From the IMG/VR virus record IMGVR_UViG_3300044832_000020, positions 1-62,107 of that record: DNA of 62,107 nucleotides, one strand, 5' to 3'. This stretch comes from a virus. Positions 17,018 to 54,394 of this stretch are shown in pieces. The notes under the pieces were generated by a model. That model ran no database searches. It was not told the DNA's origin and saw only the letters and a program-made list of their open reading frames with translations. The position numbers were made by a program, and so were the translations under genes. The number at the start of each line of letters is the position of its first letter. Position 1 is the stretch's first letter.

Positions 17018-17063
17018 CGCCTCCGCTGACCAGCGTAACGTCAATGGCGTCTTGACAGTGAAG

Positions 17064-26397: not shown

Positions 26398-26482
26398 GGG
26401 TGGTGATGCGATCACACGCGAGCCGTACTGCCGACCCGGGAGGGCTTCACCGGTGACGGGCCAGCCTGTGCTGGCGGGTTTA
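26398..26482. repeat. about 85-nt intergenic element, copy B
   Basis: See copy A. Contains the motif at 26428..26461. Confidence 0.85.
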
Positions 26483-34347: not shown

Positions 34348-34481
34348 GTGGTGGGGTTTCCTTCTGGTGGTGGGAAACGCCAGAGCACGCACCACCCTGG
34401 CCAGGACAGCGCCTGCCTGGTCGGTACGCGCTCTCGCGTGTGATTGCTTGCGTACGGGTGCTCGACGCGGCAGATCGACGC

Positions 34482-34949
34482 CTAGAGCCTCTGGCCGAGC
34501 CTGCTCTGCAGGTCTGCCAGCGCGGTGGCGATCTCGCGCCGCGCTTCCTTCTCGTTTTCCTTCATCGGGACCGAGAACCAGCCGGCCTTGACTGGCTGCG
34601 TGACCCAGCGGTCCGGGTGGCCGTACACCGGGTGTCGGACGCGGCCCTTGTCGATGCCGTGGATGTTGGCCGTTCCCTTGGCGATGAGCTGCAGGGACGG
34701 GTCACCTTTGCCGGTGGTCCGGTTGCGGGTCGTGAACCGTGACGCCGCGACTCGCTTGGCCAGGCCGCCACGGTGCGGCAGGATCAGCAGTGCTCGTGCT
34801 CTGGCCTCCGCCTTGGGTTTCTTGGTGGCCCGGTTGAGCGCCTTATACAGCTCGCGCTTGACTTCCTTGTCGCCGGTTTCCTTGAGCCGCTTGGACAGCT
34901 TCGCGAGCTGCTCGGCCCCGACGATCTTGAGCGGGGCGAATCCCGCCAT
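34482..34949 (-). CDS. HK97 gp10-like tail/neck component (155 aa)
   Basis: Track ORF. LKETGDKEVKRELYKALNRA...LPHRGGLAKRV resembles the gp10 family. Assignment is tentative. Confidence 0.45.
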   Translation of the reverse strand: MAGFAPLKIVGAEQLAKLSKRLKETGDKEVKRELYKALNRATKKPKAEARARALLILPHRGGLAKRVAASRFTTRNRTTGKGDPSLQLIAKGTANIHGIDKGRVRHPVYGHPDRWVTQPVKAGWFSVPMKENEKEARREIATALADLQSRLGQRL

Positions 34950-38730: not shown

Positions 38731-41178
38731 TCAGGAGGTCCGCTGCAGAACCTGGAAGGCGGCGTCGGCCAGGATCTTCGAGTTGTTGCGCCAGATCGCG
38801 TAGAGCCCGCGCTGGCCGGTCGGCATGCCGAGACCGGGAGCAGCAGCGACGTTGAAGATCTGCGGGATCAGCTCGACGCTCATGCCGAGCCGGTCCACGA
38901 TCAGGAACTGGGAGAAGTCCCCGAAGATCATCCAGCGGTCGCCGACGTTGCCGGGGCCGGTGAGCATCGCCGACGCCTCGTAGGCCGGGTAACCCAGCAG
39001 CTCCGGGGGCTGCCCGAATCCAACGCGCTGCCAGAGCGCCGAGCCGCCGGTGGTGTCGAGCTGTCGGAGCAGGTTGTAGGTGCTCTTGTTGGCCAGGAAG
39101 GTGGCGCCCGGCCGGAAGCGCGGGTTCAACCCGGACTCCAGCGAGTAGACGTTGGCCATCAGCACCAGGGCGCCGGCGGTGCCGACGTTCTGCGAGCTGT
39201 TGAGCGTCTTGACCACACCGTTGGGCTGCACGCCGATGCCGGTGCCGTTGAGGAAGGAGGTTCCCTCTTCCACGTTCTTGGCGTCAGCCAGCAGACGGAA
39301 CATCTCCGACTGCAGGCCGGTCCAGTCCTGGTCGACCTCGTACGAGAAGGGCACGAAGCCCTGGACGCGAGTCGGGGTCAGGGTCGGCTGTGCCAGGGCC
39401 GGCGAGTTGTCGGTGGCCGCTGCGGCTTCAGCAGCACGGCTGACCGTGATGCCGGCTGAGGTGACGCCCTGCCACTGCTGGCCGGTGATCGTCTCGATGC
39501 GGGCGACCTGACGGATCGGGCTGAGCACGGCGGTCGAGGTGAGGATCACCGTCGGGTCGAGGGTGAACGGCACCGCGAACGCGCCGGACGCGCCGGCACC
39601 CATCGCCAGGGCGCGTTGTTCCTCGCTGGTCAGCGTGTTGGTGCTGAGCGCCAGGCACGCCTTGCCGAACGCGCGCTGATAGGTCGGCGAGCCGGTGACG
39701 ATGATCCGCCGGGCGAACGTGCCCTGCTCATCGTCAACGAAGTCCAGCAGGTACTGGATCCGGTCGGCGGCCTCAGAGTGCTTGACGCCCCGGCCAGGGA
39801 ATCGGGTCTGCTCAACGATCCGCAGAGCAGCGTCCCGCATCAGCGACGGGACCTCGTCAATGCTGCGGGCCTGCTGCCGGATCGCGGCCAGGTCGTAGAT
39901 GTTGTCCGGGCGGCGAACGACGTTCGGCACCTGCGGGGTGACCTGCTCGCCGGCCTGGCGGGCAGCCATGTCAGCAAGGCGGGCCTTGCGGCGCTGGTCA
40001 GCGGCAATCGCCGTCTCGTTGCCGTCGAACTCGGTGTTAAGCGAGTCCCACTCGGTCTGGGTCTCACCCGGCAGGGTGGCCCCGTTGAATTCGTTGTCGA
40101 TCTCCTGCAGGCGTACGCGGATCTCCGACTGGCGAGCTTCGCGCTCCTCCGAGGTCAGAGGGTCGAGGTCAGGCATGGGGGTTGGTCCTTCCGGGCGCGG
40201 TGACGACGAATCGACCCGGGCTGCACGCGCAGGGGGTCGCTTGATTGCCTCGGAGTGCCGTTCGGCCGGTGCGTCCTCGGAGTGCTCGGTGAGCGAGTCC
40301 AGGCTCGACGCCGGGGTCGGCGGGTCGTCGGATACTGCGACGGCAACAGGGGCGGTGATGGTCGCGGGCTCGGGTTCCGAGGTGCGAAGCGTCACCGTTT
40401 CGATGGTGCCGGTGGCGCCGGCGGCGGCGTCGGGGATCGCGGGTTCGGCAGATACCGGAGTGCGAATCTCTTTCGTGCGCGCTAGCGCCTGGTCATAGAG
40501 TACCGGGTCGCGCCGGCGAAGGCGCTCATAGAAATCGTCGGTGCTGGACCGGAGGCTACCGGCCGAGCGCAGACCGGCGTCAGCAGCCGGGTTGGCGGGG
40601 AACGCGGTCGGCCCGAACTCGATCAGCCGAACCTCCCGGATGGTGCGCTGCGGGAGATCAGTCCACTTGTCATTGCCCGGGTCCTCCCAGGTGTCGGCTT
40701 CCGGGTCCTCGACCCAGTCATCGGCCATCACGTTGAACCGGAACGACTGCCCGTAGGCGCCAGCGCGGAGACCGCTCACGATGATCTGCGGCACGCCCTC
40801 GAACAACGGCACCTCGGCGTACGGGCCGGTGGCGTCTTCCTGCAGCATTTCGGGCAGGCCCAGCGGCCGGTCGCCCATCCCCGGGTCGAACCCGTGATCG
40901 AGCAGCACGCGCACCGGCGACTGGTTCGAGCGGTTGTTGATCGTCCGCTTGAACGCGCCTGGCGCGATCCGCTCGATGAACTTGCCCTCCCAGAATGAGT
41001 TGATCTCGTACCAGTCGTTGAACGTGGAGAAATGCCCCGTCATGGTGCCGGGGCTGTTGTCCGGGTTCGCGTCGGCGACAGCAGCCCGCAGCTCGGCCAC
41101 CAGTGCGGCGTCGCGGCAGACCTCGATACCGTCGAGCCTGGCCGGCGGCGAGTCGCGGAAAGTCGGGATAGCGGTCAT
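38731..41178 (-). CDS. prohead protease / scaffold-like linker / HK97-fold major capsid protein fusion (815 aa)
   Basis: N-terminus GKFIERIAPGAFKRT...LLDHG...GQSFRF resembles an HK97-family prohead protease. The middle is an acidic coiled linker. The C-terminal 300 aa resemble an HK97-type capsid. Confidence 0.75.
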   Translation of the reverse strand: MTAIPTFRDSPPARLDGIEVCRDAALVAELRAAVADANPDNSPGTMTGHFSTFNDWYEINSFWEGKFIERIAPGAFKRTINNRSNQSPVRVLLDHGFDPGMGDRPLGLPEMLQEDATGPYAEVPLFEGVPQIIVSGLRAGAYGQSFRFNVMADDWVEDPEADTWEDPGNDKWTDLPQRTIREVRLIEFGPTAFPANPAADAGLRSAGSLRSSTDDFYERLRRRDPVLYDQALARTKEIRTPVSAEPAIPDAAAGATGTIETVTLRTSEPEPATITAPVAVAVSDDPPTPASSLDSLTEHSEDAPAERHSEAIKRPPARAARVDSSSPRPEGPTPMPDLDPLTSEEREARQSEIRVRLQEIDNEFNGATLPGETQTEWDSLNTEFDGNETAIAADQRRKARLADMAARQAGEQVTPQVPNVVRRPDNIYDLAAIRQQARSIDEVPSLMRDAALRIVEQTRFPGRGVKHSEAADRIQYLLDFVDDEQGTFARRIIVTGSPTYQRAFGKACLALSTNTLTSEEQRALAMGAGASGAFAVPFTLDPTVILTSTAVLSPIRQVARIETITGQQWQGVTSAGITVSRAAEAAAATDNSPALAQPTLTPTRVQGFVPFSYEVDQDWTGLQSEMFRLLADAKNVEEGTSFLNGTGIGVQPNGVVKTLNSSQNVGTAGALVLMANVYSLESGLNPRFRPGATFLANKSTYNLLRQLDTTGGSALWQRVGFGQPPELLGYPAYEASAMLTGPGNVGDRWMIFGDFSQFLIVDRLGMSVELIPQIFNVAAAPGLGMPTGQRGLYAIWRNNSKILADAAFQVLQRTS

Positions 41179-42578: not shown

Positions 42579-42739
42579 GGGCGCTTCACCGGCCTAGTGG
42601 CGCGTTCGAGCGAGCCGATGCCGGCGGCGCCGAGCAGTAGGCCGGCCACGATGAACCCGGCCCAGTACGCGAGCAGACCCGCACCGATGACGAGACACGC
42701 GGCAGCGCAGAGCAACAGCACGAGCGCGTACCAAGTCAT
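42575..42739 (-). CDS. small two-helix membrane protein (54 aa) between terminase and portal
   Basis: MTWYALVLLLCAAACLVIGAGLLAYWAGFIVAGLLLGAAGIGSL. Start overlaps the TerL stop (TAATG) and its stop overlaps the portal start (ATGA). Confidence 0.5.
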   Translation of the reverse strand: MTWYALVLLLCAAACLVIGAGLLAYWAGFIVAGLLLGAAGIGSLERATRPVKRP

Positions 42740-44424
42740 TAGCCCTCCCCGTAGATGAAGAACGGATCCTTCGGTGGTTCTTCGGCTTCCAGCACGGCCA
42801 GGCGCCCGTCGATCGACATAAGCAGCGTCACCATGCCGTCGATCCGCTTCCCGGTCTTGCCGCGATCCGGCTTCACCGGTCGTACCCGGTCGCCGTCGTC
42901 GCGGGGTGATTTCGCCTCCAAGCTGTCCGCCATCCATGTCGAGACGGGGTTGCCGCCGTGGGCCAGCTCCTGGGATTTGAGTAGCCGGGAAAGTTCCTTC
43001 ATCGGCAGCGTCATGCGGTCGAACGTCGTGGCGGACTCATTCATCTCCAGCCCGGTCCGTTTCTGGATCTCTTGCCGGACGGGCTCGCCGGACCACCGGT
43101 CGTAGACGATGCCGGCGATCGAGTAGCGCGCGTGGTCGATCTCGATCGCCGAATAGATCAGGTCGTAATCGATCGTGTTGCCATCGGTCAGGGTGACCCA
43201 GCCGGCGTCGCACCACAGCGAGAACTTGCCGGCGGTGTGTTTGTCGAGCAGTGGCACGACCGACTCGGGTGCCCAGTACCGCCAGATCACGGTGCCGTCC
43301 TCGAACAACAGCGACCACGCGGTCAGGTCCAGCTTGGACGAGAGGTCGAGACCGGCCCAGCACTTGCGCCCTTCGAGCTGAGGGGCGAGCCAGTCGGGCT
43401 CGGGCGCGATGCCGAGATCGCCGATGTTGTCGTTCCACTCGGCGATCGACAACCAGCGGGTCGTCTGCTGCACCCATTGGCTGAGCCGGAACTGCCGGAA
43501 CTTGTTCTCTTTGGTCCGGTCGTTCTTGGCTTCGACCGCTTCCTCCCGCAGTACCTGCAGGGACAGGAAGTCACCGAGCGCCGGGTTGCCCAGCTTCCAG
43601 TTGCGTTCGTTCCACGGGTCCGCGTCGGCCGGGACGTTGCGGATGTAAACGAACGTGTGGGGGTTCCGGCTCGGGTCCTCAGCGATCCGGATCATCTCGT
43701 CGTGCTCGGCCTTGGCGAACGATGAATCGTCGTCGCCGGGCGTCGTGACGCCGACCATGAGCGGCTGGGTGCGAGCGCCGAAGCCGGTTCGCAGCGCTGA
43801 CCAGAGATCCCCGTTCGGCTGGGTGATGACCTCATCGAACGCGATCCCGTGCGGGTTCTGTCCGAGGTTGCCGGATGCGTCGGCGGCGATCACTTGATAG
43901 AACGACCCGGTTCGTTCGTCCACGATCCGCTTGCCTTGCTTGTAGATCGTCAACCGCTGAGACAGGATCGGCGACAGCTCCACCATCCGGCGCGCGACCT
44001 CGTAAACGATCGACGCTTGGTCCCTGTCTTTGGCGCACCCGTACAGCTCGGCGCCCTCTTCGCCGTCGGCGACCAGCAGAAACAGCATGATGCCGGCGAG
44101 CAGCTCGGATTTCCCGTTCTTGCGGCCCAGCTCGATCCACGCGATCCGGTACCGGCGGACGTACGTCTCCGACTCGGGGTCCCAGCGGATCGTCCCGAAC
44201 AACGGCGCGACGATATCCCGTTTCTGCCACAACGCCAGCGCGAACGCTTTCCGCGCCCACCTGGCCTTGGTGTGGACGAGCACTTCGGCGAAGAACTTGA
44301 CGACATGCGTGACGCGCGGCGCGCAGTGATGATCGCCGACCTTGCGACATGTCGTCCCGTCGAGCGCGTAGCCGCAAGGCGGTAGGCGCCGCTGTACCGC
44401 CTTCGAGGGGGTTCTAGTTGTCAT
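42739..44424 (-). CDS. terL: terminase large subunit
   Basis: 561 aa. LGRKNGKSELLAGI (Walker A-like), FDEV (Walker B-like) and a C-terminal nuclease-type region. Confidence 0.8.
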   Translation of the reverse strand: MTTRTPSKAVQRRLPPCGYALDGTTCRKVGDHHCAPRVTHVVKFFAEVLVHTKARWARKAFALALWQKRDIVAPLFGTIRWDPESETYVRRYRIAWIELGRKNGKSELLAGIMLFLLVADGEEGAELYGCAKDRDQASIVYEVARRMVELSPILSQRLTIYKQGKRIVDERTGSFYQVIAADASGNLGQNPHGIAFDEVITQPNGDLWSALRTGFGARTQPLMVGVTTPGDDDSSFAKAEHDEMIRIAEDPSRNPHTFVYIRNVPADADPWNERNWKLGNPALGDFLSLQVLREEAVEAKNDRTKENKFRQFRLSQWVQQTTRWLSIAEWNDNIGDLGIAPEPDWLAPQLEGRKCWAGLDLSSKLDLTAWSLLFEDGTVIWRYWAPESVVPLLDKHTAGKFSLWCDAGWVTLTDGNTIDYDLIYSAIEIDHARYSIAGIVYDRWSGEPVRQEIQKRTGLEMNESATTFDRMTLPMKELSRLLKSQELAHGGNPVSTWMADSLEAKSPRDDGDRVRPVKPDRGKTGKRIDGMVTLLMSIDGRLAVLEAEEPPKDPFFIYGEG

Positions 44425-44481
44425 CGCACACGCCCTGACGTGCGGACCCGGCAGGCGCTCACCGGCGACTGCTGGCGCGGG

Positions 44482-44949
44482 TCAGGACAGCAGTCGTGCG
44501 GCGCCGGCACCATGGCCCTTGCCGCCGCCCATGTGAATGTCGGAACGCCCGGACGGGGTCAGCCCGAACTCGCGCGCGTAGACCCGGATCGTGGCGGCGG
44601 CGTCGCGCTGCACCTGGACGGCGGGGTTGCGGACGGCGACCTGCCCGGTGCGCGCGTTGACCGTGACGAGCACGTTGGATTTCGCGAGCAGCCGGGATGC
44701 CTTGCGGTGGATCACCACGGCCTCGCAGTAGCAGACGAGTGCGTCACGGTCGGCGGGGCTGGCCAGCTTCATCGCGACGAGCTGGGTCAGGGTGTAGTCC
44801 CAGACGGCGCGCACTTCGGGGCTCATCTCCGCCGGCGGCTCGGGCTGCCCTTCGGGCGCGTCGGGTTCGTCGGTGTTGATCCGATCTTTCCGGTCGCCCT
44901 TCAGGATTCGCAGGTTGGTGGGTGCGCCTTTCGGTCCTCGTGCGCCCAT
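44482..44949 (-). CDS. terS: terminase small subunit (P27-family-like)
   Basis: MGARGPKGAPTNLRILKGDRKDRIN...AVWDYTL...VRNPAVQV...REFGLTPSGR resembles the P27 small terminase family. Confidence 0.7.
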   Translation of the reverse strand: MGARGPKGAPTNLRILKGDRKDRINTDEPDAPEGQPEPPAEMSPEVRAVWDYTLTQLVAMKLASPADRDALVCYCEAVVIHRKASRLLAKSNVLVTVNARTGQVAVRNPAVQVQRDAAATIRVYAREFGLTPSGRSDIHMGGGKGHGAGAARLLS

Positions 44950-44976
44950 GACTGCTCCCTCTCGTAGTTGTTCTGA

Positions 44977-45009
44977 GCCGTCACCGGTGCGGTTCTACCG
45001 GGTCGGCAG
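44977..45009. promoter_or_regulatory. copy 3 of the quasi-palindromic motif, 28 nt upstream of terS
   Basis: gccgtcaccggtgcggttctaccgggtcggcag. Confidence 0.7.
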
Positions 45010-45102
45010 ATCGAGGCGACACGTTCTATCGCAGGCGTGCCCCGACGCGGTAGAAACGTCAGGGGCCAGTTGACACTCTTGTTTACAGGGAGCCACGGTC
45101 CG

Positions 45103-45215
45103 TCACCCAAAATAGTTGCTTACTTCAGTGGTCGGGGGCTTGTTTTCTCTGGGCGGGCGCGTAACTTGAGTGGTGTAGTGCCCCGCAAGTTCAACCCCCA
45201 CCCGAGGAGCCCGCC
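45103..45215 (+). promoter_or_regulatory. promoter/operator/leader cassette, copy 1
   Basis: tcacccaaaatagttgc ... cttgtttt N16-17 taactt ... ggtgtagtgccccgcaagtt ... ggag ... ATG. Confidence 0.7.
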
Positions 45216-45401
45216 ATGAACGCAACCCAGACACTCGCAGCCCAGCTCGCATCGCTCGCTGTCCTGCTCCCGGTCCTGGTGTGGTCCGGCCGGGCGTACG
45301 TCAAAGCTGTCTACGCCCCGCACCCGGACACCGACCCCACGTACCAGTGGGACGTCGAGCTGACCGCCGATGGCCGCTTCCTCGTCCACCCCGTCTCATG
45401 A
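45216..45401 (+). CDS. small membrane protein (61 aa)
   Basis: Track ORF, first gene after cassette 1. Confidence 0.55.
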   Translation: MNATQTLAAQLASLAVLLPVLVWSGRAYVKAVYAPHPDTDPTYQWDVELTADGRFLVHPVS

Positions 45402-45601
45402 CCGCCACGATCGCGGCCCGCGATCTCGCCAAGGCGAGCACCGCCGACCTCATCGCGCAGTACGACAAAGCGGTCAGCAGCAACGCTGGCCGCTACACCA
45501 ACACGTCACCCCGCCAGACGCGGATCAACCTGATCGTTGATCTGCTCGCCGGCCGCGCCGACAAAGACGACGCCCTGGCGATCGAGTGGCTCGCATCATG
45601 A
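45398..45601 (+). CDS. hypothetical protein (67 aa)
   Basis: ATG 45398 in ATGA overlap (MTATIAARDLAK...). Confidence 0.5.
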   Translation: MTATIAARDLAKASTADLIAQYDKAVSSNAGRYTNTSPRQTRINLIVDLLAGRADKDDALAIEWLAS

Positions 45602-45771
45602 ACACCCGCTGGCCCGTCGTCGCGCGACACATCGACCGCGTCACTTGCGACCACGTCGAGTGCCACGCGCTGCGGGCTCTCGCACAGGAGGCCCACCGCC
45701 TCCACCGGTACGACCTCGTCAACACGGCTGAGCGCGAGCTGAGCCGCTGTCCAGAAAGGACTGACTCATGA
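45598..45771 (+). CDS. hypothetical protein (57 aa)
   Basis: ATG 45598 in ATGA overlap (MNTRWPVVARH...). Confidence 0.45.
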   Translation: MNTRWPVVARHIDRVTCDHVECHALRALAQEAHRLHRYDLVNTAERELSRCPERTDS

Positions 45772-46025
45772 ACAACCCCGCCGACCTTTTCTGCGCCGAA
45801 TGCGGCGCGCCCGCCACCCAGCGCGTGACCGTGCTGGTCGACGTCAACGGCGACCCCGACGCGGCCCGGCTCGACTCGCAGTCTTACTGCACTCTGCACG
45901 CGGCGACCGTCACCGAGGAACTTGCCCACGGCAACCCTCCGAACGCCGAGCTGGTCTCTGTGCTCGCGATCACCGAGGCGTGGTTGGCGCACCGAGAGGT
46001 CTGTGACAACTGTCGCAACCTGTGA
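45768..46025 (+). CDS. zinc-ribbon-like protein (85 aa)
   Basis: CAEC...C..H...CDNC; track ORF. Confidence 0.55.
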   Translation: MNNPADLFCAECGAPATQRVTVLVDVNGDPDAARLDSQSYCTLHAATVTEELAHGNPPNAELVSVLAITEAWLAHREVCDNCRNL

Positions 46026-46032
46026 TCTCTCG

Positions 46033-46141
46033 TCACCCAAAATAGTCGCTTACTTTAGTGGCCCAGAGCTTGTCAGGTTTCTCGGACGCGCGTAACTTCA
46101 GAGTCAGTAAGCCCCGCAAGTTACCAGCTAGGGAGACCGAG
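46033..46141 (+). promoter_or_regulatory. promoter/operator/leader cassette, copy 2
   Basis: -35 TTGTCA, 17 nt, -10 TAACTT; same flanking boxes. Confidence 0.7.
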
Positions 46142-46483
46142 ATGAACACCACCACCGCCGCCAGCTTCACCGCCACCATCGTGTTCTGCGACTACAGCCA
46201 GAACCAGCAGTCCACCGTCTCCCGCGAATTCACCGACTACGCCAAGGCGATCCAGTGGATCAACATCCAGAAGTTCCAGGTGACCGAAGACCTGCTGAGC
46301 GCGACGATCGTTCCCACCCCCGCCGCCCCGACCGCCCTGCAGATCACGCTTGCTGAGCTGCAGGCCGAAGAGTCCGCTCGCGAGTTGGACAGCATGCTGG
46401 CCCGCGACTGGACCCAGCCCGAGACGCCCGCCGAGTGGGCCGAGCGCCTCAACCGCAAGCTAGCCCGGGGCGTCCGCCCCTGA
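46142..46483 (+). CDS. hypothetical protein (113 aa)
   Basis: ATG 46142 directly after cassette 2. Confidence 0.55.
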   Translation: MNTTTAASFTATIVFCDYSQNQQSTVSREFTDYAKAIQWINIQKFQVTEDLLSATIVPTPAAPTALQITLAELQAEESARELDSMLARDWTQPETPAEWAERLNRKLARGVRP

Positions 46484-46517
46484 TCTCCCACCGGGGGCGG
46501 GTGAAACCGCCCCCAAC

Positions 46518-46590
46518 GGGTCTATAGCTCAATGGCAGAGCAGGCCATCTATATGCGCTTGGCGCCGGTTCGATTCCGGCTAGATCCACC
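46518..46590 (+). tRNA. tRNA-like gene (73 nt) with canonical acceptor, D and T arms but an irregular anticodon arm; identity unresolved (loop tctatat)
   Basis: gggtcta ta gctc aatggca gagc a ggcca tctatat gcgct tggc gccgg ttcgatt ccggc tagatcc a. Only 3 of 5 anticodon-stem pairs form. Confidence 0.55.
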
Positions 46591-46624
46591 GAGACCGCCA
46601 ACCGGGCGGTCAGAAGGGAAAGTC

Positions 46625-47095
46625 ATGACAGGCACGACCCTGCGCACTCGCACTCACCAACAGCGAATCGAGCAGATCCGCCGACTGGTCGCTGAGCATC
46701 ACGTCCCCGTGACCGGCCAGAACCTGCACGAAGATTTCGTCCTCGACAACATCGCCAGCGTGCTCGGCGGCGGCGAGGCTACGATCTCCCACCCCCACTA
46801 CGTCGCATGCCTGGAATACCTGGCCCGCCGGCCGATCTACCGCGCCGATCGTTCGTCGCTAACGACAGTGTCGAATCTGATCCTGCGGATCCGCCGCGAG
46901 CATGACAAGGCATTCAGCTACGACGCCGGCTATGACGGCGGCGAGTTCTCTGGCCCAGCTCATCAGCGAGCTGAGACCCGGGAGATCGAGGTCGCGGTGG
47001 CCAGCAACGGCTGGACCTGGCAAGCGCTAGAGGATGAGCTACGCGCCCGCACGACTGCGCGCTGGGCTCACTACGTACTGATGGGCTGGTTCTGA
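46625..47095 (+). CDS. hypothetical protein (156 aa)
   Basis: ATG 46625 with SD gaaggga. Confidence 0.55.
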   Translation: MTGTTLRTRTHQQRIEQIRRLVAEHHVPVTGQNLHEDFVLDNIASVLGGGEATISHPHYVACLEYLARRPIYRADRSSLTTVSNLILRIRREHDKAFSYDAGYDGGEFSGPAHQRAETREIEVAVASNGWTWQALEDELRARTTARWAHYVLMGWF

Positions 47096-47292
47096 TGGCT
47101 GAGAGCGAGCCCCTGTGGGGCCTGTTGTTCGACGGTAAGGAACTGGCCGCCGCTGGCCCGATGGTCATGACGCGCCACAGCGACGCGCCCGCCGATTACA
47201 GCATGATGATCCGCCGCGACGGCGAGACCATCACCCTGCCCGGGTCGTTCCGGCTGCGCTTCATCGCGACCGAGATCCCGTCTCTCAACTAG
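47095..47292 (+). CDS. hypothetical protein (65 aa)
   Basis: Track ORF with start/stop overlap. Confidence 0.5.
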   Translation: MAESEPLWGLLFDGKELAAAGPMVMTRHSDAPADYSMMIRRDGETITLPGSFRLRFIATEIPSLN

Positions 47293-47304
47293 GAGGAACC
47301 AACC

Positions 47305-47673
47305 ATGTCCGAAGTCACCTTCGCCGACGTCCTCACGTACGTCGCCACAACCGCAACCTTCGATGAGATCAAGGCGCTGTTTGCCGCCGGCAACGCGCGG
47401 GGCAAAGCGCTCCATGCTGCTGACGCCGCCGTCACTGCCGGGCTGCTGAAAGCCGGCGACCGGGTCGAGCTGGCCGGCGTCCGGCCCGCGTACCTCAACG
47501 GGCTCACCGGGACGTTCGTTCGTCTGGACACCGCGAATCGTGCTCGCACGACCGCCAAGCAGCGCGCCACGGTCAAGCTGGATGAGGCAAGCGCCTTCAA
47601 GGCTGGCCGCTACGTGAACGGCAGTCGCGAGATCGCCGGGATCCCCGTCAGCGCTCTCAAGATCGTCGCCTGA
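47305..47673 (+). CDS. hypothetical protein (122 aa)
   Basis: Track ORF; SD aggagg upstream. Confidence 0.6.
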   Translation: MSEVTFADVLTYVATTATFDEIKALFAAGNARGKALHAADAAVTAGLLKAGDRVELAGVRPAYLNGLTGTFVRLDTANRARTTAKQRATVKLDEASAFKAGRYVNGSREIAGIPVSALKIVA

Positions 47674-47769
47674 CACGCGCCCGCGTGACTCTTCATGTGT
47701 CTGTGTGCCCAGCGGGTCAGGACCCGGCAGATCGTCGCCGGTGACTCGGCCCGTCTGGGCGACGGATCG

Positions 47770-47876
47770 TCACCCGAAATAGTTGCTCCCGGTTCGCGCC
47801 CAGCCCTTGTTTCCCCGCCGGGCGCGCGTAACTTGAGAGGTGTAGTACCCCGCAAGTTTACTCAGAGGAGACCGAG
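47770..47876 (+). promoter_or_regulatory. promoter/operator/leader cassette, copy 3
   Basis: As copy 1; dyad AACTTG N17 CAAGTT intact. Confidence 0.7.
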
Positions 47877-48263
47877 ATGACCACCACCCCGACCGCCGTC
47901 CTCACCGCCTACTTCCACTCGGGGTTTGGCGAGAGCAGCCCGATCTTCGCCGACCTCAAAGTCGAATTCGGCACCGACGAAACCGCCGCCCGCGAGCTGG
48001 CCGCGAAACTCCCCAAGAGCTACGGGGCCAGCGTTCACACCGTCGGCCGCTACTCCGGTGGGACCAGCACCTACTACCTCGCAGTCCACGCCAACCTGTT
48101 CCCGACCGAGGGCAACGACCGCAACGAAACCGGCATCCGCCGCCTCATCAACGCCGAGCGCAAGCTCACCGCGCTGGGCGTCGAGATCGCCTTCGGCAAC
48201 CCCGCCGACCGCACGATCAACGCCTACCGCACCCGCGAGCAGTTCAACGCCGCGATCGCCTGA
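47877..48263 (+). CDS. hypothetical protein (128 aa)
   Basis: Track ORF after cassette 3. Confidence 0.6.
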   Translation: MTTTPTAVLTAYFHSGFGESSPIFADLKVEFGTDETAARELAAKLPKSYGASVHTVGRYSGGTSTYYLAVHANLFPTEGNDRNETGIRRLINAERKLTALGVEIAFGNPADRTINAYRTREQFNAAIA

Positions 48264-48315
48264 CCTGAGCGGGCGGGTCTCCCCCGAGACTCGCCCAACT
48301 GAGGGCCACGATCCA

Positions 48316-48424
48316 TCACCCAAAATAGTTGCCGCGATCAAGCGCCCAGCCCTTGTTTTCCCGCTGGGGGCGCGTAACTTAAGAGGTGTAGTACCCCGCA
48401 AGTTCAACCCCAAGGGAGCCGATC
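48316..48424 (+). promoter_or_regulatory. promoter/operator/leader cassette, copy 4
   Basis: -35 ttgttt 48353..48358 and -10 taactt 48375..48380. Confidence 0.7.
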
Positions 48425-48649
48425 ATGATCACTCGCACCGTCGCCACCGTCGTCGCCACCCCGGCCACCGAACTCCAGTTCGCCGTCGAGGGCTTCACCA
48501 CCGAACTCGCCACCGACCTGCTCCCCCTGCTCGTTGCGTCAGCGCAAGTTGACGGCACCGACGTCAGCGAAGCCCGCGAGTCGTTCCTCTCCACCCTGCG
48601 CGACGCGCTGACCACCGCCCACCAGCTCTCCCACGAATTCGACAACTGA
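48425..48649 (+). CDS. hypothetical protein (74 aa)
   Basis: Track ORF after cassette 4. Confidence 0.55.
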   Translation: MITRTVATVVATPATELQFAVEGFTTELATDLLPLLVASAQVDGTDVSEARESFLSTLRDALTTAHQLSHEFDN

Positions 48650-48736
48650 CCAGACAGCAGTTGAGCGAGTCCGCCCCGACTCGCTGAATCGGTTGCCTGA
48701 CCACCCCGGCCAGACCCGAACCCCGAAAGGAAAGTC

Positions 48737-49753
48737 ATGTCGCACCAGCTAGAACGCAACGGCACCGAGGTCGCCTTTGTCGACAACCGGAACGATGCTT
48801 GGCACCAGCTCAACAACCTGCCGGCCGAGTATCAGGGCAAGAAAATCAGCGCGGAGGTAGCGCTGGAGGCCGGCCACCTCGCCGACTGGAACGTCCGCAA
48901 GGTTCCCGCGTATGCCCTGCTCGACGGCGGCGAGTACGTCGCGATGCCCGGTCAATTCGCCACCGTTCGCGACAACCCCTGGACGCCAGGCCAAGTCGAT
49001 CTGCTCGGCAGTGTCGGCAGCGCCTACGTGCCCGTCCAGAACGAAAGCAACATCGACGTCCTGAATGCCGTTATCGATGAGACGGGCGCCACGATCGAGA
49101 CCGCCGGCTCGCTGCGCGACGGCAAGAACGTGTTCGTCACGATGAAACTCCCCGACACGATGAGCGTGGGCGGCGTCGACAAGGTCGATCTCTACATCGC
49201 CGGTCTCAACAGCCACGATGGGACGTCCGCGTACAACATCCTCGTCTCGCCGGTCCGCGTCGTCTGCGCCAACACCCAGAGCTATGCGCTCCGCAACTTC
49301 GAGGCGAAACACCCGATCCGCCACACATCCAGCGCGACCAAGAAAATCGAGCTGGTCCGCCAGTCGCTCGGGCTCGCGTTCAAGTACGCCGAGGAGCTGC
49401 AGGTCGAGGCAGACAAGATGATCGACACCGCGCAGACCGAGGCCCAGTTCCTGGAGATCGTCAACCAGATCTGGACCCCCGACGACGAGCCCAGCAAGCG
49501 GGCCGTCACCGTCGCTGCCGAGCGCACCGCAAAGCTGGTCGACCTGTTCTCAGTCGCCCCCACCCAGGCGAACATCAGGGGCACCCGCTGGGCCGGTCTG
49601 CAGGCAGTCACCGAGTACATGGACCATTTCGCGCCCGTCCACAGTGGCCAGCGCGACGAAGCCACCCAGCGCGCCGAGCGCGTCCTGGTCGGCTCCACCG
49701 CCGCCAGCAAGTCGACCCGCCAAAAGGCGTTCGACCTCTTCTCCGTCAACTGA
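48737..49753 (+). CDS. DUF932-family phage/plasmid protein (338 aa)
   Basis: NDAWHQL...VPVQNE...GKNVFVTMKLP...LNSHDGTSAY...VRVVCANT fits the DUF932/TIGR03299 pattern. Confidence 0.65.
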   Translation: MSHQLERNGTEVAFVDNRNDAWHQLNNLPAEYQGKKISAEVALEAGHLADWNVRKVPAYALLDGGEYVAMPGQFATVRDNPWTPGQVDLLGSVGSAYVPVQNESNIDVLNAVIDETGATIETAGSLRDGKNVFVTMKLPDTMSVGGVDKVDLYIAGLNSHDGTSAYNILVSPVRVVCANTQSYALRNFEAKHPIRHTSSATKKIELVRQSLGLAFKYAEELQVEADKMIDTAQTEAQFLEIVNQIWTPDDEPSKRAVTVAAERTAKLVDLFSVAPTQANIRGTRWAGLQAVTEYMDHFAPVHSGQRDEATQRAERVLVGSTAASKSTRQKAFDLFSVN

Positions 49754-49829
49754 CCGAAAGCGGATCACCCCCGCCCCACCAGGCAGGGGTGATCCGGCAC
49801 CACCCCACCAACCCCGAAAGGAACACGTC

Positions 49830-50255
49830 ATGAACGACACATCCAACCCGACTGTCTGGGTCTCGATCGCCGAGCTACAGGCCGCCGTGTATGAGGTCGA
49901 GGCCGGTCGCAACGGCGACGTCAACGATCTCGTGAGGCTGCGCCACGCGCTGAATCTGGCGCTGGCCCGCTGGCCCGAAGTCAACCCCTACCCGCCCGTC
50001 TGGCACGTCGCACAGGCTCACGTTGACGATCACAGCCGGCCCGAAGTGCTGCTGCACCTTGAGCACTGCCCGCACTTCTACACCGACGCGGAGCGGGCTG
50101 CTGAAAGCATCCGAGACCCCGACGTCCGCCAGACGACCGCTGGGGAACGCGCGCTCACACTCGACGGCGCCGGCCGTACATGGCGCCACTGTCAGCACTG
50201 CGACGCGAAAGCCGCGAAGGGCGAATCCTGGCCGGATTGGAACGCGGCATCGTGA
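49830..50255 (+). CDS. hypothetical protein (141 aa)
   Basis: ATG 49830 (MNDTSNPTVWV...), in frame within the track ORF. Confidence 0.55.
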   Translation: MNDTSNPTVWVSIAELQAAVYEVEAGRNGDVNDLVRLRHALNLALARWPEVNPYPPVWHVAQAHVDDHSRPEVLLHLEHCPHFYTDAERAAESIRDPDVRQTTAGERALTLDGAGRTWRHCQHCDAKAAKGESWPDWNAAS

Positions 50256-50497
50256 TCACCGTCGGGATCGTCGGCGACTACAACAACGACCATCACTATG
50301 AGCGCACCGTCGCGGTCGCCGGCCCCACCGCTGAGGAACGCAACGATCTCGGCGAGTGGTGGTGGGACGTTGTGTATCCCGAGACAGGTGACAACCAGAC
50401 AGAGCGGGGCGTCGAGGGCATACACACATGCACGATCCTCGCTGCCGACCCGCCAGACAACGACCTCGTGGGCGTCACGTACGACCTAGGCGGCTGA
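50252..50497 (+). CDS. hypothetical protein (81 aa)
   Basis: GTG 50252 in GTGA overlap. Confidence 0.5.
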   Translation: MITVGIVGDYNNDHHYERTVAVAGPTAEERNDLGEWWWDVVYPETGDNQTERGVEGIHTCTILAADPPDNDLVGVTYDLGG

Positions 50498-50500
50498 GCA

Positions 50501-50701
50501 GTGAGAATCACCGAGGCCCGGAAGCGCGCGACCGCCACGGGGCGGCACGGGTACTTCCGGGCCAGCGCCACCGAGATGTATGCGCGTTGCCCGGAGTGCC
50601 GGGTCAACGTCACCACGACCGTGTTCGCCTGGGCGAGCGAATCCGAAAAGTCCAAGGCCCGTAAGCAGTCAATGATCGAGCACCTGATGGAGGAGCACTG
50701 A
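50501..50701 (+). CDS. hypothetical protein with CPEC motif (66 aa)
   Basis: Track ORF. Confidence 0.5.
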   Translation: MRITEARKRATATGRHGYFRASATEMYARCPECRVNVTTTVFAWASESEKSKARKQSMIEHLMEEH

Positions 50702-51054
50702 TGATGAGCACCGCAATCGACACGAGACAAGCGCCCCTGTGGGTACGGACAGCGAGGCGCCCATGGAAGCCGCCGCGACTGTCGCCCGACGGGAAGCCGT
50801 TCGAGCCGGAAGGGTTCCACCCGGGCGCGACAGTGACATGGCGGCAGCTCGTTGCCGGCGACTGGGCCGAGCGTTCCGGGCAAGTCTGGTCGGACGGCTG
50901 GCTGCCCAAATCAGTCTGGGTGATCCCCTTCGAGCCACTCGCCGGCGAGCACGCGGTGCTCGTGCAGCAAGAGCGGTACGGCCGATACGAACGCAGCACC
51001 TGGGGCGACGACAACGCCGCCACATTCAAGGCGAACACCGAGAGGAACCACTGA
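50701..51054 (+). CDS. hypothetical protein (117 aa)
   Basis: Track ORF. Confidence 0.55.
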   Translation: MMSTAIDTRQAPLWVRTARRPWKPPRLSPDGKPFEPEGFHPGATVTWRQLVAGDWAERSGQVWSDGWLPKSVWVIPFEPLAGEHAVLVQQERYGRYERSTWGDDNAATFKANTERNH

Positions 51055-51055
51055 C

Positions 51056-51302
51056 ATGTCCGCTGATCGCACGTCGACGTTCAACCACCCGTACCAATTG
51101 CGGGGCCGGCAGTTCAAGACGCGCACCTACAAGACCGAGGCCGCCATGGATGCGGCTGCGGCCAAGGCACTCGCCGACAGCTACTGGCCCAACACCGGCT
51201 GGCCGGTGGCTGCGCGGGCTGCGGGAATTCCAGCCGAAGGGGATGCCCCACGACTGGTACGAGATCAAGACGTACTACCCGGAAGCCGAGAGGGTGTGGT
51301 GA
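51056..51302 (+). pseudogene. small gene whose coding signal switches +1 frame near the GGG at 51223..51225 (indel, pseudogene or recoding)
   Basis: The frame of ATG 51056 is GC3-rich until about 51222. From there the +1 frame is GC3-rich (EFQPKGMPHDWYEIKTYYPEAERVW) and stops at 51300..51302. Confidence 0.45.
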
Positions 51303-51304
51303 CG

Positions 51305-51844
51305 ATGAACCAGCGCGAGCAACTACTGGCCGCGTATAACGCATGGCAGATCGAGCGGGCCTCGCTGTCCGAGCGCGAGAACAACCAGAGGGACCCGGAC
51401 GGCCCGGTCAGCTCGGACGAGTGGCACGCCAGCGACGACGCGGGGATCGACCTGCTGCACAGCTTCGCGGCGTTCGATTGGAACGTCTTGCCGGCCGAGC
51501 GCCCCGATCACTGGGCCGAGGACAGGGAGTTTCCCGTCGCCGACTGGCGAGCCGAGGTCGCCGATGACAACACCCGCCAGAGCTACGTCGACTGGGTAGC
51601 GAGCCAGCGGGGTGAGCTGGCTGACAACGTCCTGGCCGAGCCGGCGCCGTTACCGCCGAACTGGCAGGTAGCAGATCTGCATGACCCGGACTCACCGGAT
51701 CTGGCCGACAACATCCTGGCCGTGAGCGACGACGTCGACCCGTTCGCCTACGCCGAACACACCGAGGACGCGAACGCGGGTAGCGACGATGACCAAGCAG
51801 AGCCATACGCCAGCGATGAGCCGATCGAGGGCGGTTATCGGTGA
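51305..51844 (+). CDS. hypothetical acidic protein (179 aa)
   Basis: ATG 51305 (MNQREQLLAAYNAW...); GC3 recovers here. Confidence 0.55.
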   Translation: MNQREQLLAAYNAWQIERASLSERENNQRDPDGPVSSDEWHASDDAGIDLLHSFAAFDWNVLPAERPDHWAEDREFPVADWRAEVADDNTRQSYVDWVASQRGELADNVLAEPAPLPPNWQVADLHDPDSPDLADNILAVSDDVDPFAYAEHTEDANAGSDDDQAEPYASDEPIEGGYR

Positions 51845-51876
51845 ACGCGACCCCGTCACGGGTTAACGTGGGAGGT

Positions 51877-52152
51877 ATGACTACTCCCACGTTTCTCCCG
51901 CTACGGGAAATCGCTGAGCTGATCGGCGTCGAGTACCGCACGATCCGCAACTACCACCAAATGGCTGAGCGCCGGCGCCGCGAGAGCGAGTCGAGCGGCG
52001 TCGACGTCACGCGACCCGGCGATTTCCCGAAACCCGATGACACATTCAGTCGGACGCCCGTCTGGAAGGTCTCGACGGTACGCGCCTGGGAGAAGCGCCG
52101 GCCCGGTCGCGGCGTGGGTGGCGGCCGGCCACCTAAGAAAGATGCTGGCTGA
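51877..52152 (+). CDS. AlpA/excisionase-type HTH protein (91 aa)
   Basis: ATG 51877 after gggaggt. LPLREIAELIGVEYRTIRNY...DFPKPD...TPVWKVSTVRAWEKRR. Confidence 0.6.
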   Translation: MTTPTFLPLREIAELIGVEYRTIRNYHQMAERRRRESESSGVDVTRPGDFPKPDDTFSRTPVWKVSTVRAWEKRRPGRGVGGGRPPKKDAG

Positions 52153-52234
52153 CACCGCCTGACCCCTACCGGGTCCGATCGAGCGCCCTAAGCAGTCACT
52201 AGCGCTCGATACCCACCGAAAACCCACTGTCAAC

Positions 52235-52305
52235 GGGCTCTTGACACCGCCAGAGGCATGCGCGAATCTTAGAGGGCAACACACCCACCAAGTTAGGAGC
52301 CCGCC
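52235..52305 (+). promoter_or_regulatory. diverged fifth copy of the promoter/leader cassette
   Basis: cttgaca ... gcgcgaatctt ... caagtt aggagcccgcc ATG. The last 15 nt are nearly identical to copy 1. Confidence 0.5.
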
Positions 52306-52590
52306 ATGAGCCGCAAGCTAGGTCCCGTCGAAACCCCCGAGTATGGCGCGATGGTGCGTCGCATGGTCCGCGCGTACGGCAAGCGCGTTGGCAACGCCGA
52401 CGACGTCGACCTGAGCCAAATGCTCGCCCTGCGCGATGAGGTCGAGGCAGCGATTGCCACCGCCGTGACCCTGCAGCGCACCGAGTGGAACCGCTCATGG
52501 GCCGAGATCGGCCGTGGGCTCGGCATCACCCGCCAAGCAGCCCAGCAGCGTTACGGGCGCACCCAGAACGAAGAGGAGCAGGCATCGTGA
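52306..52590 (+). CDS. small HTH DNA-binding protein (94 aa)
   Basis: C-terminal WAEIGRGLGITRQAAQQRYGR is a sigma-r4/Hin-like HTH. Confidence 0.55.
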   Translation: MSRKLGPVETPEYGAMVRRMVRAYGKRVGNADDVDLSQMLALRDEVEAAIATAVTLQRTEWNRSWAEIGRGLGITRQAAQQRYGRTQNEEEQAS

Positions 52591-52763
52591 CCGACTGCAC
52601 CGGCAGCGGGCGACCGTGGGGCTCGGGGACGGGCGCCCCGATCTGCCCCGTCTGCCACCGAGGACCCAACGCACTACAGACCAAGCGGCCCGTGCGCCGC
52701 AAAGGCCACTGGTCCGGCATCGTGCCGGCCCACGAACACAGGGAAGGATCGCTGAGGAAATGA
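52587..52763 (+). CDS. hypothetical protein with CPVC motif (58 aa)
   Basis: GTG 52587 in GTGA overlap. Confidence 0.4.
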   Translation: MTDCTGSGRPWGSGTGAPICPVCHRGPNALQTKRPVRRKGHWSGIVPAHEHREGSLRK

Positions 52764-52987
52764 ACGACACAGTGAACTGCCTGGGCTACGCCGGCGGCGC
52801 CTGCTCGGGTCCCATCGAATACCGCATGCCGCTATCTGGCACTGGGGAATCGTTCCCGCGCTGCGACAAACACTGGGCCGCGCGCCTCGAACTGGAGCAG
52901 GAACTGCGCGAGCGCTACCCGGCGACGCCACCGGCCGACTGGTCCCCGCTCGACGCCGGCGAGCACTGGAATGAAGAGGACTACTGA
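52760..52987 (+). CDS. hypothetical protein (75 aa)
   Basis: ATG 52760 in ATGA overlap. Confidence 0.5.
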   Translation: MNDTVNCLGYAGGACSGPIEYRMPLSGTGESFPRCDKHWAARLELEQELRERYPATPPADWSPLDAGEHWNEEDY

Positions 52988-52988
52988 G

Positions 52989-53177
52989 ATGAGGGCATAT
53001 CCGATGTGGCCAGGGGTCCCGGCCGCCGGCCACGTCACATCAGGCGGCGCCTGGCACCCGGGCGCAATCAGCTCGTGCAGCAAGTGCGACCGCCACGACT
53101 ACGAGCCGGGCGACGTCACGCACCCGATGCACACCGACCCCAACTGCCGGCACTGCGGAGAGGCGAAACACTCATGA
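52989..53177 (+). CDS. Cys/His-rich mini-protein (62 aa)
   Basis: ATG 52989; CSKC...H...CRHC. Confidence 0.45.
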   Translation: MRAYPMWPGVPAAGHVTSGGAWHPGAISSCSKCDRHDYEPGDVTHPMHTDPNCRHCGEAKHS

Positions 53178-53392
53178 GCTACGAACTCGGCAACGCCGTC
53201 GCCCGCGTCGTCGCAGAACACACCGGCCTGGAAGAGGGCTCGATCGTCGGGCTGCACATCACCGGCGATCTGGTCTGGGTCGTTTACGGCGTTCGCACCG
53301 GCCCCGGCCCCGAAGACATTCAGCGACGCACCCGAGCACTTGACCCCGTCACTGGCGCCACCGTCAGCGACGATTTTGGAGAGATGACATGA
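53174..53392 (+). CDS. hypothetical protein (72 aa)
   Basis: ATG 53174 in ATGA overlap. Confidence 0.5.
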   Translation: MSYELGNAVARVVAEHTGLEEGSIVGLHITGDLVWVVYGVRTGPGPEDIQRRTRALDPVTGATVSDDFGEMT

Positions 53393-53709
53393 GCGACTGG
53401 CACGAAAACCCACCACCACGGCACCGCGTACCGATCCCGGTCGAGACCCTCGAACACGTCGACGGCGTGCAGTGGCTCGACGCGCCGGTGCCGCCCCGCC
53501 AGCATGACTGCTGGGCGCAGACCAAGGCATTCGACGTGTTCGGCATGTTGATCGCCGAGCGCTGCGCCTGTGGTGCAATCCGACTGTGCGACAACCCGTA
53601 TCGCGAGCACCCGTGGCTCGAACGGAACTCGCGCGACGACGCCGAGCGACGTCATACCCCACCGCGCGGCCGGCTCGCCGCCTGGCTGTCCCGGCGGAGC
53701 CGGCGATGA
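53389..53709 (+). CDS. hypothetical protein (106 aa)
   Basis: Track ORF. Confidence 0.55.
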   Translation: MSDWHENPPPRHRVPIPVETLEHVDGVQWLDAPVPPRQHDCWAQTKAFDVFGMLIAERCACGAIRLCDNPYREHPWLERNSRDDAERRHTPPRGRLAAWLSRRSRR

Positions 53710-53933
53710 GAGCCAAGCTGGAGCGAGATTTCGACGGCGGCGCCATCGTCATCACGACCCGGCGCCGCTGGTATCGAGCCGGCGCCTGGTTCGGCATTGC
53801 GCCCGGTCACCACAAGGGACTGTGGCACACACCCGGCCGAGTGCATGGCTGGAATCTGCGGGTCGGGTCGCTGCACAAGTGCCTCACTCTGCTCGGTCAC
53901 ACGCGGCCCCGCGATGACAGGTATGACCGATGA
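53706..53933 (+). CDS. hypothetical protein (75 aa)
   Basis: ATG 53706 in ATGA overlap. Confidence 0.45.
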   Translation: MRAKLERDFDGGAIVITTRRRWYRAGAWFGIAPGHHKGLWHTPGRVHGWNLRVGSLHKCLTLLGHTRPRDDRYDR

Positions 53934-54319
53934 TGCCGCCCGAAGAACTGCGCGTGCTGACCGTGCGCCAGCCCCACGCCAGCGCGATCGTGCTCGGGCA
54001 CAAAGACGTCGAGAACCGCACATGGCAATGCCCGGTGCGTAGCGTCATCGCCATCCATGCCGGCAAGTCGCCCAGCGAGATCGCGCTGGCCATGCCGCTG
54101 CTGCTGCCCGACCCGCTACCGACCGGCGCCATCATCGGCGTGGTTCGCGTCGCCGACTGCCTGCCCGGCACGTCGACCAGCCCGTGGGCGATCCCCGGGC
54201 ACTGGCACTGGGTGCTCGCCGACCCCCGGCTACTGAAAGTGCCGGTCGCCTTCACGGGGCGCCAGGCCCTCATCCACGCACCGGCCGACGTCGCTCGCGC
54301 CGTGCTGGACCAGCTTTGA
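53930..54319 (+). CDS. ASCH-domain (PUA-like) protein (129 aa)
   Basis: LTVRQPHASAIVLGHKDVENRTW...IAIHAG fits the ASCH N-terminal pattern. Confidence 0.6.
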   Translation: MMPPEELRVLTVRQPHASAIVLGHKDVENRTWQCPVRSVIAIHAGKSPSEIALAMPLLLPDPLPTGAIIGVVRVADCLPGTSTSPWAIPGHWHWVLADPRLLKVPVAFTGRQALIHAPADVARAVLDQL

Positions 54320-54345
54320 CGGGAACCCGCTCCCTTTGCGTGCCC

Positions 54346-54373
54346 GACGCTCCCCTCCCTGGAGGGGAGCGTC
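54346..54373. terminator. bidirectional stem-loop at the convergence of the plus block and the early minus operon
   Basis: gacgctcccctcc ct ggaggggagcgtc read directly. Confidence 0.7.
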
Positions 54374-54394
54374 TCCCCTGTGTGTTCGTATCTG

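Follow-up and report, generated by a model that had tools for sequence, protein, structure and literature searches.

In Cluster A actinophages, stoperators are repressor sites distributed across intergenic gaps in both genome arms (PMC9283540; PMC4351075). They are 13 bp long and asymmetric, number about 20–30 or more per genome and point in one direction relative to transcription, and they have been proposed to act on transcription elongation or by silencing (PMC9283540, PMC4351075). The repressor-bound stoperator is the only validated precedent for sites spread across the early and late operons of a temperate actinophage (PMC9283540). The ESAS elements of Cluster K are imperfect inverted repeats with a variable spacer, located immediately upstream of the SAS and the start codon; their function is unexplained (PMC3203893). 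They have 17-bp arms, are tied to the 13-bp SAS, run in one direction, accompany non-structural genes only and are cluster-specific (PMC3203893). Cluster O phages, which are not obviously temperate, contain 17-bp dyad repeats (TGTTCGGNNNCCGAACA) with perfect 7-bp arms and a 3-bp spacer in more than 30 copies, one third of them in genes; function is unexplained here too, and orientation to transcription is not meaningful (PMC4351075). In T4-type phages, PeSLs are small intergenic stem-loop cassettes repeated at junctions, where they form direct repeats flanking exchangeable modules; each combines a strong sigma-70 promoter with an effective terminator, and dozens occur per genome (PMC2839356, PMC4122927).

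The repeat family described here was found in the genome of an uncultured actinophage (62,107 bp; the whole analysed stretch is referred to as the window). It is built around a hairpin motif, and its solid copies are designated A, B, C, D, E, F and I. Like the stoperators of Cluster A (L5/Bxb1-type), the motif is short, phage-specific, placed mostly in short gaps of the early and late operons and, among the matches listed, absent from host genomes. Unlike them, it is a 29–30-bp imperfect inverted repeat in seven copies, four sense and three antisense. Conserved inverted repeat operators of the same general idea are reportedly present in Streptomyces phage phiC31. A layout resembling that of ESAS (hairpin followed by a start-associated context) was seen in copies A and B and not in C, D, E, F and I. 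The motif differs from ESAS in its mixed orientation, in the location of B, F, D and C in the structural and lysis operon and in an SD context shared by two copies; the two have no sequence similarity. With the Cluster O dyads it has dispersion and dyad symmetry in common, but its arms are imperfect, its spacer is 8–9 nt and all seven copies are intergenic. As with PeSLs, copies D and C bracket a mosaic gene pair, X1-X2; in the present family, no recombinant junction was seen inside the repeats. Unlike PeSLs, the unit has no sigma-70 promoter. A stem-loop is present and is short, imperfect, of average stability and free of a T-run. Conceptually, the family belongs with the known actinophage repeats (stoperators, SAS/ESAS and Cluster O dyads). 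It is new in that it shares no sequence with them and consists of a long imperfect dyad in a cassette of about 100 nt, in few copies and mixed orientation.

Phage genome

The window ends are an identical 23-bp direct repeat (1–23 = 62085–62107), so that the 62,107-bp contig is circular or complete. Its G+C content is 66%. A nucleotide search of GenBank phages with the whole window gave no match; TerL has 54% identity to TerL of Streptomyces phage Chymera. The genome is that of a temperate siphovirus-type actinophage, uncultured. The temperate lifestyle is deduced from a tyrosine integrase (14591–15772; catalytic-domain match ending at aa 344–364 of 393) and a tRNA-like attP, the core of which is probably the partial tRNA-like sequence at 16585–16641 (minus strand), 0.8 kb from the integrase gene.

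The late operon runs on the minus strand from 44949 down to about 16838. It contains terS (44482–44949, minus; P27/Terminase_4 family), with the inverted copies B and F on either side, terL (42739–44424), portal, fused protease-capsid and tape-measure genes, and the amidase endolysin gene (24493–25377; Amidase_2). In the fused gene (ORF 38731–41178, 815 aa), a prohead protease (Peptidase_S78) is joined to an HK97-type major capsid protein (Phage_capsid). ORF 19039–22017 encodes a 992-aa late protein with internal repeats at 19285–20306 (period 54–57 nt, families D1–D5), which is probably a repetitive fibre or tail protein. X1 (25900–26349, minus) is a polytopic, holin-like membrane protein with several hydrophobic segments; X2 (25476–25907, minus) has an N-terminal TM segment and a coiled coil. 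A long minus-strand block includes the primase-helicase (Prim-Pol, D5_N and DUF5906), whose minus-strand ORF begins at TTG 2750 and crosses coordinate 1; because it spans the window start, it is absent from linear-window ORF lists. The early operon (45216–54319) lies on the plus strand, and a complete tRNA-Ile gene (anticodon TAT; 46518–46590, plus) was found in the early region. The identities that a first-pass annotation had given to the genes next to the motif were confirmed for terS (Terminase_4), endolysin (Amidase_2), primase (Prim-Pol/D5_N/DUF5906) and X1 (membrane protein with multiple hydrophobic segments).

Copies of the motif and their placement

Four copies of the motif had been reported in the first-pass annotation, and all four were recovered where it had placed them, with the same orientations (2784–2810 and 44980–45006, plus; 25428–25455 and 26431–26457, minus). 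The pattern GTCACCGGTG-N6-14-CCGGGTCGG gave 4 matches in the window versus 0.00 expected from 100 dinucleotide-preserving shuffles, with spacers of 8, 8, 9 and 8 nt between the two arms. The motif is not limited to these four: three further solid members were found by mismatch scan, nhmmer profile and covariance model, which brings the genome to at least seven (A, B, C, D, E, F and I), with two further possible relics (G and H). Extra matches in the covariance-model search of the window were sub-threshold and all within genes; those at 10325–10361 (plus) and 1962–1998 (minus), with E about 0.01 on a rough calibration, are either chance matches or decayed copies.

For comparison, copies were aligned in one "forward" sense, CCGACCCGG-N8-CACCGGTGACGG. 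Copy A (core 2782–2810, CCGACCCGG-CAGAACGT-CACCGGTGACGG) reads forward on the minus strand and has the same sense as the primase-helicase gene, 31 nt upstream of TTG 2750; its unit covers about 2772–2870 and has a TTGACG box at 2861–2866. Copy B (core 44978–45006, minus; unit about 44969–45066) is sense to terS, 28 nt upstream of ATG 44949, and its position is kept in related phage contigs. Copies C and D both read forward on the plus strand, which makes them antisense to the late operon. C (core 25428–25457, spacer 9) lies 18 nt past the X2 stop codon and 50 nt ahead of the amidase ATG at 25377; D (core 26431–26459) lies 20 nt past the stop codon of gene 26480–26845 and 81 nt ahead of the X1 ATG at 26349. 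Copy E (core 15747–15775, plus; CCGAGCCGG-GAGGTGAG-CACCGGTGACGG, one mismatch) is sense and overlaps the integrase stop codon (15770–15772), 46 nt ahead of ATG 15822. Its unit (15686–15786) spans the last ~28 integrase codons, beyond the catalytic-domain match.

Copies F and I are diverged. F (core 44443–44471, plus; CGGACCCGG-CAGGCGCT-CACCGGCGACTG; nhmmer E=6e-5) is antisense, occupies the 57-nt terS/terL gap 10 nt past the terS stop codon and was also found in relatives L129 and L004. I (core 47719–47749, plus; AGGACCCGG-CAGATCGT-CGCCGGTGACTCGG; nhmmer E=0.013) is sense and lies 45 nt past the stop codon of early gene 47305–47673, within a longer stem of -43.7 kcal/mol. The possible decayed members are weak: G (17260–17285, minus; CTGACCCGG-CAGGCGAT-GACCTGG) is hairpin-like with E=0.32, and H (34399–34424, minus; CCGACCAGG-CAGGCGCT-GTCCTGG) has E=6.9. 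Exactly 13 nt upstream of the hairpin, C, D, F, G and H have a box ATCACAC (ATCRCAC). G and H lie in an 87-nt intergenic late-operon repeat (17261–17347 and 34400–34486, 74% identity), which opens with CTAGG-GATCTGCCGCG at the preceding gene's stop codon and contains a ATCACACGCG box and a degenerate hairpin. These 87-nt repeats may be old members of the hairpin-motif family.

Placement in rare gaps, claimed earlier for the first four copies, applies to all seven solid copies: each lies in an intergenic gap, and such gaps make up 8% of the genome (chance about 2e-8). Six of the seven are 0–118 nt past a gene end. A, B, E and I are sense to their flanking genes; C, D and F are antisense, 10–20 nt past stop codons of the late operon. 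The proposal that the motif marks module starts does not hold as stated, given three antisense copies after stop codons, E on the integrase stop codon and I 45 nt past an early gene. The wider idea of a dedicated element holds in part. The motif is non-random, intergenic and phage-specific, and a cis-acting role is reasonable, but the modules do not require the element, as relatives without it exist. The SD context common to two copies in the earlier description, CGAGAGGRAGC, is real; it is exact in the primase and terS copies only, near-matches at other sites being at chance level. Both A and B have the order hairpin, 13 nt, CGAGAGGRAGC, start codon.

A repeated unit of about 100 nt

The hairpin motif is the 3' part of a repeated unit of about 100 nt (~80–100 bp). 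In A, B, E, D and every terS-upstream relative, the hairpin is preceded at 48–50 nt by a TTGACG/TGACG box; C and F are without it. The core consists of two short GC helices, CCG/CGG and CCGG/CCGG, with a conserved A.A mismatch and a conserved bulged T. The loop start N-A-G is conserved, loop positions 2–3 (AG) being invariant in 13/13 sequences; the remaining loop positions are variable, as are the flanks. Among copies A–E, the arms differ by 1 base across 21 positions, the unpaired A, T and A included, and loops and flanks differ widely. The 5' part of the D unit, TGACGTTCTGGTGGATC (TGACGTTCTGG...), is closely similar to the unit that precedes terS in relative L127, TGACGTTCTGGCGGGTC, which indicates that whole units were copied, and not the hairpin alone, in inverted orientation. 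D and C are direct repeats sharing ~80 nt at ~92% identity. The family is real: its copies are intergenic, conserved in sequence, present in both orientations and insertion-like in behaviour.

Partial sequences of the core were also considered as the true site and rejected. The right-arm palindrome GTCACCGGTGAC is not retained by L127 and L128, where the copy upstream of terS has CGCTGGCG instead, and the left half of the left palindrome CTGCCG-ACC-CGGCAG is not conserved. The SD-like loop GGAGGTG of C, D and E was rejected too: in C and D it is carried by the non-coding strand.

Other repeats were noted in the same genome. The 5' edge of unit B is a palindrome, CGTCAG-N7-TTGACA (45057–45075), conserved as TGTCAA-N7-TTGACG in all relatives. 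The corresponding second motif, YGTCAR-N7-TTGACA, occurs in three intergenic gaps (17039–17057, 45057–45075 and 52228–52246) and is probably either an operator-like motif in its own right or two -35 elements placed back to back; TTGACA itself occurs 8 times in the genome, 4 of them in gaps. The L218 palindrome TGTCAAGACGCCATTGACG is identical at 19/19 positions to window 17057–17039. In the early region, a plus-strand unit of ~100 nt is present in 3–4 copies (45101–45191, 46031–46122, 47768–47858 and 48314–48404). It has a SigA-like promoter, TTGTTT-N16-TAACTT, overlapped by a dyad AACTTG...CAAGTT, and continues with similar ribosome-binding regions and N-termini (GGAGACCGAGATGA...). These early units are likely repressor-controlled early promoters.

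A candidate recognition site

The core is read here, tentatively and at less than even confidence, as a stoperator- or operator-like site, recognised by a phage-encoded factor that would keep transcription units insulated. A lineage-specific cassette of ~80–100 bp would have been copied to phage gene boundaries in either orientation, and its core would be recognised by a putative phage-encoded, sequence-specific nucleic-acid-binding protein. Once bound, this protein would punctuate transcription by blocking or insulating read-through at sensitive boundaries: ahead of the primase and endolysin genes, around terS and the holin-type genes, past the integrase gene and inside the early operon. Binding of a protein to the core and an effect on transcription are what we infer. 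The invariant loop AG and the conserved arms, unpaired bases included, point to sequence-specific recognition rather than to a generic hairpin. Sense and antisense copies are equally conserved, which a double-stranded DNA site tolerates and an mRNA element recognised by its sequence does not. The hairpin is short, imperfect and of average stability, has no T-run and is unlike the hairpins of other gaps, which argues against an ordinary terminator. The position of copies by replication, packaging and lysis genes of a temperate phage would fit a silencing or insulating role.

Several observations weigh against a recognition site. The core is long (29–30 bp) and its arms are not true mirror images. 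G.U wobbles and A24->G changes (see below) lean to a single-stranded fold of the forward strand rather than a double-stranded DNA site. For a stoperator-like site, the mixed orientation and the number of copies, seven only, are atypical. Gene conversion between copies could keep the arms alike without strong selection. Finally, no binding protein is apparent among the annotated proteins: searches of ~50 non-structural proteins with Pfam and PHROG gave a sole clear DNA-binding domain, in an HTH_17 Xis-like protein (13546–13782), and a weak ParB_N match in the product of 56778–57350, and no candidate regulator beyond these two.

Predicted folding and covariation

A cis-acting RNA hairpin is a possible, though doubtful, alternative to the recognition site. 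The quasi-palindrome, which folds in both orientations, would then serve as a terminator or attenuator (factor-independent or factor-assisted), as a 5'-UTR or 3'-end stabiliser or as an endonuclease processing site in the manner of T7 RNase III sites. The same imperfect stem was indeed predicted from both strands; the T.T mismatch and bulged A pointed out in the first-pass annotation follow from the sequence and were present in the predicted folds. Copies I and F sit inside longer predicted stems, and the position of six of the seven copies just past a gene end is in keeping with such a role. Folding energies are ordinary, however (z-scores -1.2 to +1.7), and there is no U-tract.

Paired cells amounted to 89–94%, versus 27–61% with partners slid; for a set of 13 sequences, made up of the seven in-genome copies, one strain variant and five copies from relatives, the values are 89% and 34–57%. 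Of ten pairs, 4–5 never vary (4 in the 13-sequence set) and only 2 change on both sides. The covariation score observed for the extended structure was reached by 2–3 of 500 shuffles (3 in the 13-sequence set). This lies inside the range of false positives stated for the tool on related sequences, and covariation of the hairpin is weak. The terS-upstream relatives keep pairing through G.U wobbles, and a C5->G change comes with T7->C; in the L218 copy, however, a central pair is broken with no compensation. C-G pairs arise from A24->G changes. Every wobble cell is a G.U pair when the forward strand is read, antisense copy F and the D variant included. The wobbles hint weakly that this strand folds regardless of which way the flanking genes run, and they speak against a hairpin in mRNA, as in antisense copies the forward strand is the non-mRNA strand. 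Nor does a generic hairpin need conserved unpaired bases or a conserved arm sequence across paralogous copies. An RNA hairpin would thus explain the retained pairing, but neither the sequence conservation nor the forward-strand bias in antisense copies. The antiterminator and processing-site roles suggested earlier fit poorly with identical copies in both orientations.

A scan of the copies for terminator-like sites with a U-tract or T-run found none at any copy, and an intrinsic (rho-independent) terminator was rejected for a stem that is short, imperfect, of average stability and without a T-run. Long, perfect and unique GC-rich hairpins were observed in other gaps (4209–4280, 13451–13545, 46484–46520, 48264–48310, 48650–48700, 49754–49829 and 54320–54394, the last between convergent operons). 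These are likely generic terminators. A known RNA family was rejected likewise: searches of Rfam 15 (CRISPR-DR families included) returned nothing overlapping any copy, either at the gathering threshold or at E<=10.

Retention, absence and possible exchange in relatives

Related contigs were drawn from runs ERZ27267894 (L128), SRR30224743 (L127), SRR22207361 (L129) and SRR25547250 (L218). Copy B is kept upstream of terS in all four (TerS 76–91% identical) and in a 96%-identical strain, L004, with drift in the arms of relatives, for example CCGAGCCGG...CGCTGGCGGCGG in L128. The palindrome TGTCAA-N7-TTGACG upstream of the B unit is strongly conserved in relatives, and four phage contigs share a conserved block, GCGATAGAACGTGTC, ahead of terS.

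Other copies behave differently, and a mobile or recombinogenic boundary cassette, comparable to a PeSL, is a rather doubtful reading of them. A unit of ~100 bp would spread to junctions and, as its chief effect in evolution, supply homology for module exchange, with any regulatory effect secondary; this is compatible with a recognition site in the core. Such a cassette would account for the length of the unit, ~100 nt and not 30, and for the match between the 5' part of D and the L127 terS-upstream unit. The primase and lysis copies are missing at the same junctions of relatives. Copy A is absent from the same junction in primase relatives (67–69% aa identity), whose homology to the window begins directly after copy A. 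The X1-X2 pair occurs at 76–86% aa identity in four otherwise unrelated phage contigs, beside different endolysins. There, homology to the window is confined to X1-X2, the exact segment between D and C; C or D units were not found at the same junctions, where gaps measure 4–73 nt. X1-X2 is a mosaic two-gene lysis module between the direct repeats D and C. At the integrase gene, unit E provides the last ~28 codons and the stop codon. In 96–99%-identical strains, C is unchanged save a 1-nt loop deletion, and D has a cluster of 6–7 changes by which it resembles E, with improved forward-strand pairing; the clustering suggests gene conversion between copies.

A mobile cassette explains why the unit is ~100 nt long, why it has been gained and lost between relatives and why it brackets a mosaic module. 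Against it, mosaic junctions of phages occur at gene boundaries anyway, the unit is without a promoter consensus and a transposase is not evident. Among close strains, no pair of empty and filled sites was seen, the copies being present in every variant strain, and among the matches listed the unit is not multi-copy in any sampled host genome. That host scan covered 185,579 species representatives and gave at least 120 matches; those listed were single and scattered over diverse high-GC taxa, in about the number expected by chance. With no multi-copy hosts or arrays among them, a host REP/MITE-type or CRISPR repeat was rejected.

Searches of GenBank phages and plasmids with the window and with single units (near and distant DNA searches) gave nothing, or chance matches of 20–40 nt. 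The motif scan of IMG/VR returned 5 loci, of which L004 alone is the same phage. With the terS-upstream 15-mer GCGATAGAACGTGTC, 71 IMG/VR loci were obtained, unrelated apart from L004. In protein-anchored scans, TerL, amidase, primase and integrase were compared with IMG/VR, and TerL also with JGI metagenomes; only L004, L006, L201, L202 and L211 came back, and none of them contributes a further copy.

Possible strand-specific or transcribed elements

The cassette might also be an element of which one particular strand folds, as single-stranded DNA or as an RNA made on its own. It would be recognised as a hairpin with extrahelical bases and copied between phage gene junctions; we consider this unlikely. 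Stated otherwise, and just as unlikely, the family would be a phage-borne analogue of REP or attC-type elements, or a small-RNA gene family, bracketing modules such as X1-X2. Integron attC sites have R''/R' core boxes (RYYYAAC / GTTRRRY) at the hairpin base. These boxes are absent from all aligned copies.

That the forward unit is a transcription unit of its own, whether as a middle or late promoter that depends on an activator or as a small-RNA gene, appears quite unlikely. This is the closest version of the promoter or activator idea in the first-pass annotation. Its layout would be a TTGACG box, a spacer of ~49 nt and the hairpin, transcribed whatever the direction of the neighbours, and it draws on the constant spacing of the TTGACG/TGACG box in A, B, E, D and all terS-upstream relatives, on the conservation of GCGATAGAACGTGTC in four contigs and on the wobble bias even in antisense copies. 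A and B, moreover, stand directly ahead of the first genes of the replication and packaging blocks. A sigma-70-type promoter was nevertheless contradicted by the scans: the consensus scan was negative, and by inspection no TANNNT -10 hexamer is present in either orientation of any unit, so none stands at a sensible spacing, whereas other parts of the genome do have recognisable, genuine SigA-like promoters. Transcription from C, D and F would send antisense RNA into terS and the lysis genes, and two of these copies, C and F, are without TTGACG. Rfam gave no match, and no terminator follows the hairpin.

It is highly improbable that B and F are terminase recognition sites (pac/cos-type) flanking terS and the other copies incidental, since five other copies lie far from terS, four of them better conserved than F, and the circular assembly is uninformative about ends, even though B and F bracket terS in inverted orientation, both are kept in L129 and the DNA upstream of terS is strongly conserved.

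Significance

Dispersed cluster-specific repeats are common in actinophages and, except for stoperators, mostly unexplained. The hairpin family is a tractable case, with seven copies, clear gain and loss between relatives and an anchor copy upstream of terS in several phages. Repeats of this kind could be regulator sites, RNA signals or recombination substrates, and the family lends itself to asking which. If the copies are not silencing sites, the family is one further lineage-specific repeat of an uncultured phage. If they do silence or insulate around replication, packaging and lysis genes, the stoperator principle would extend beyond Cluster A.
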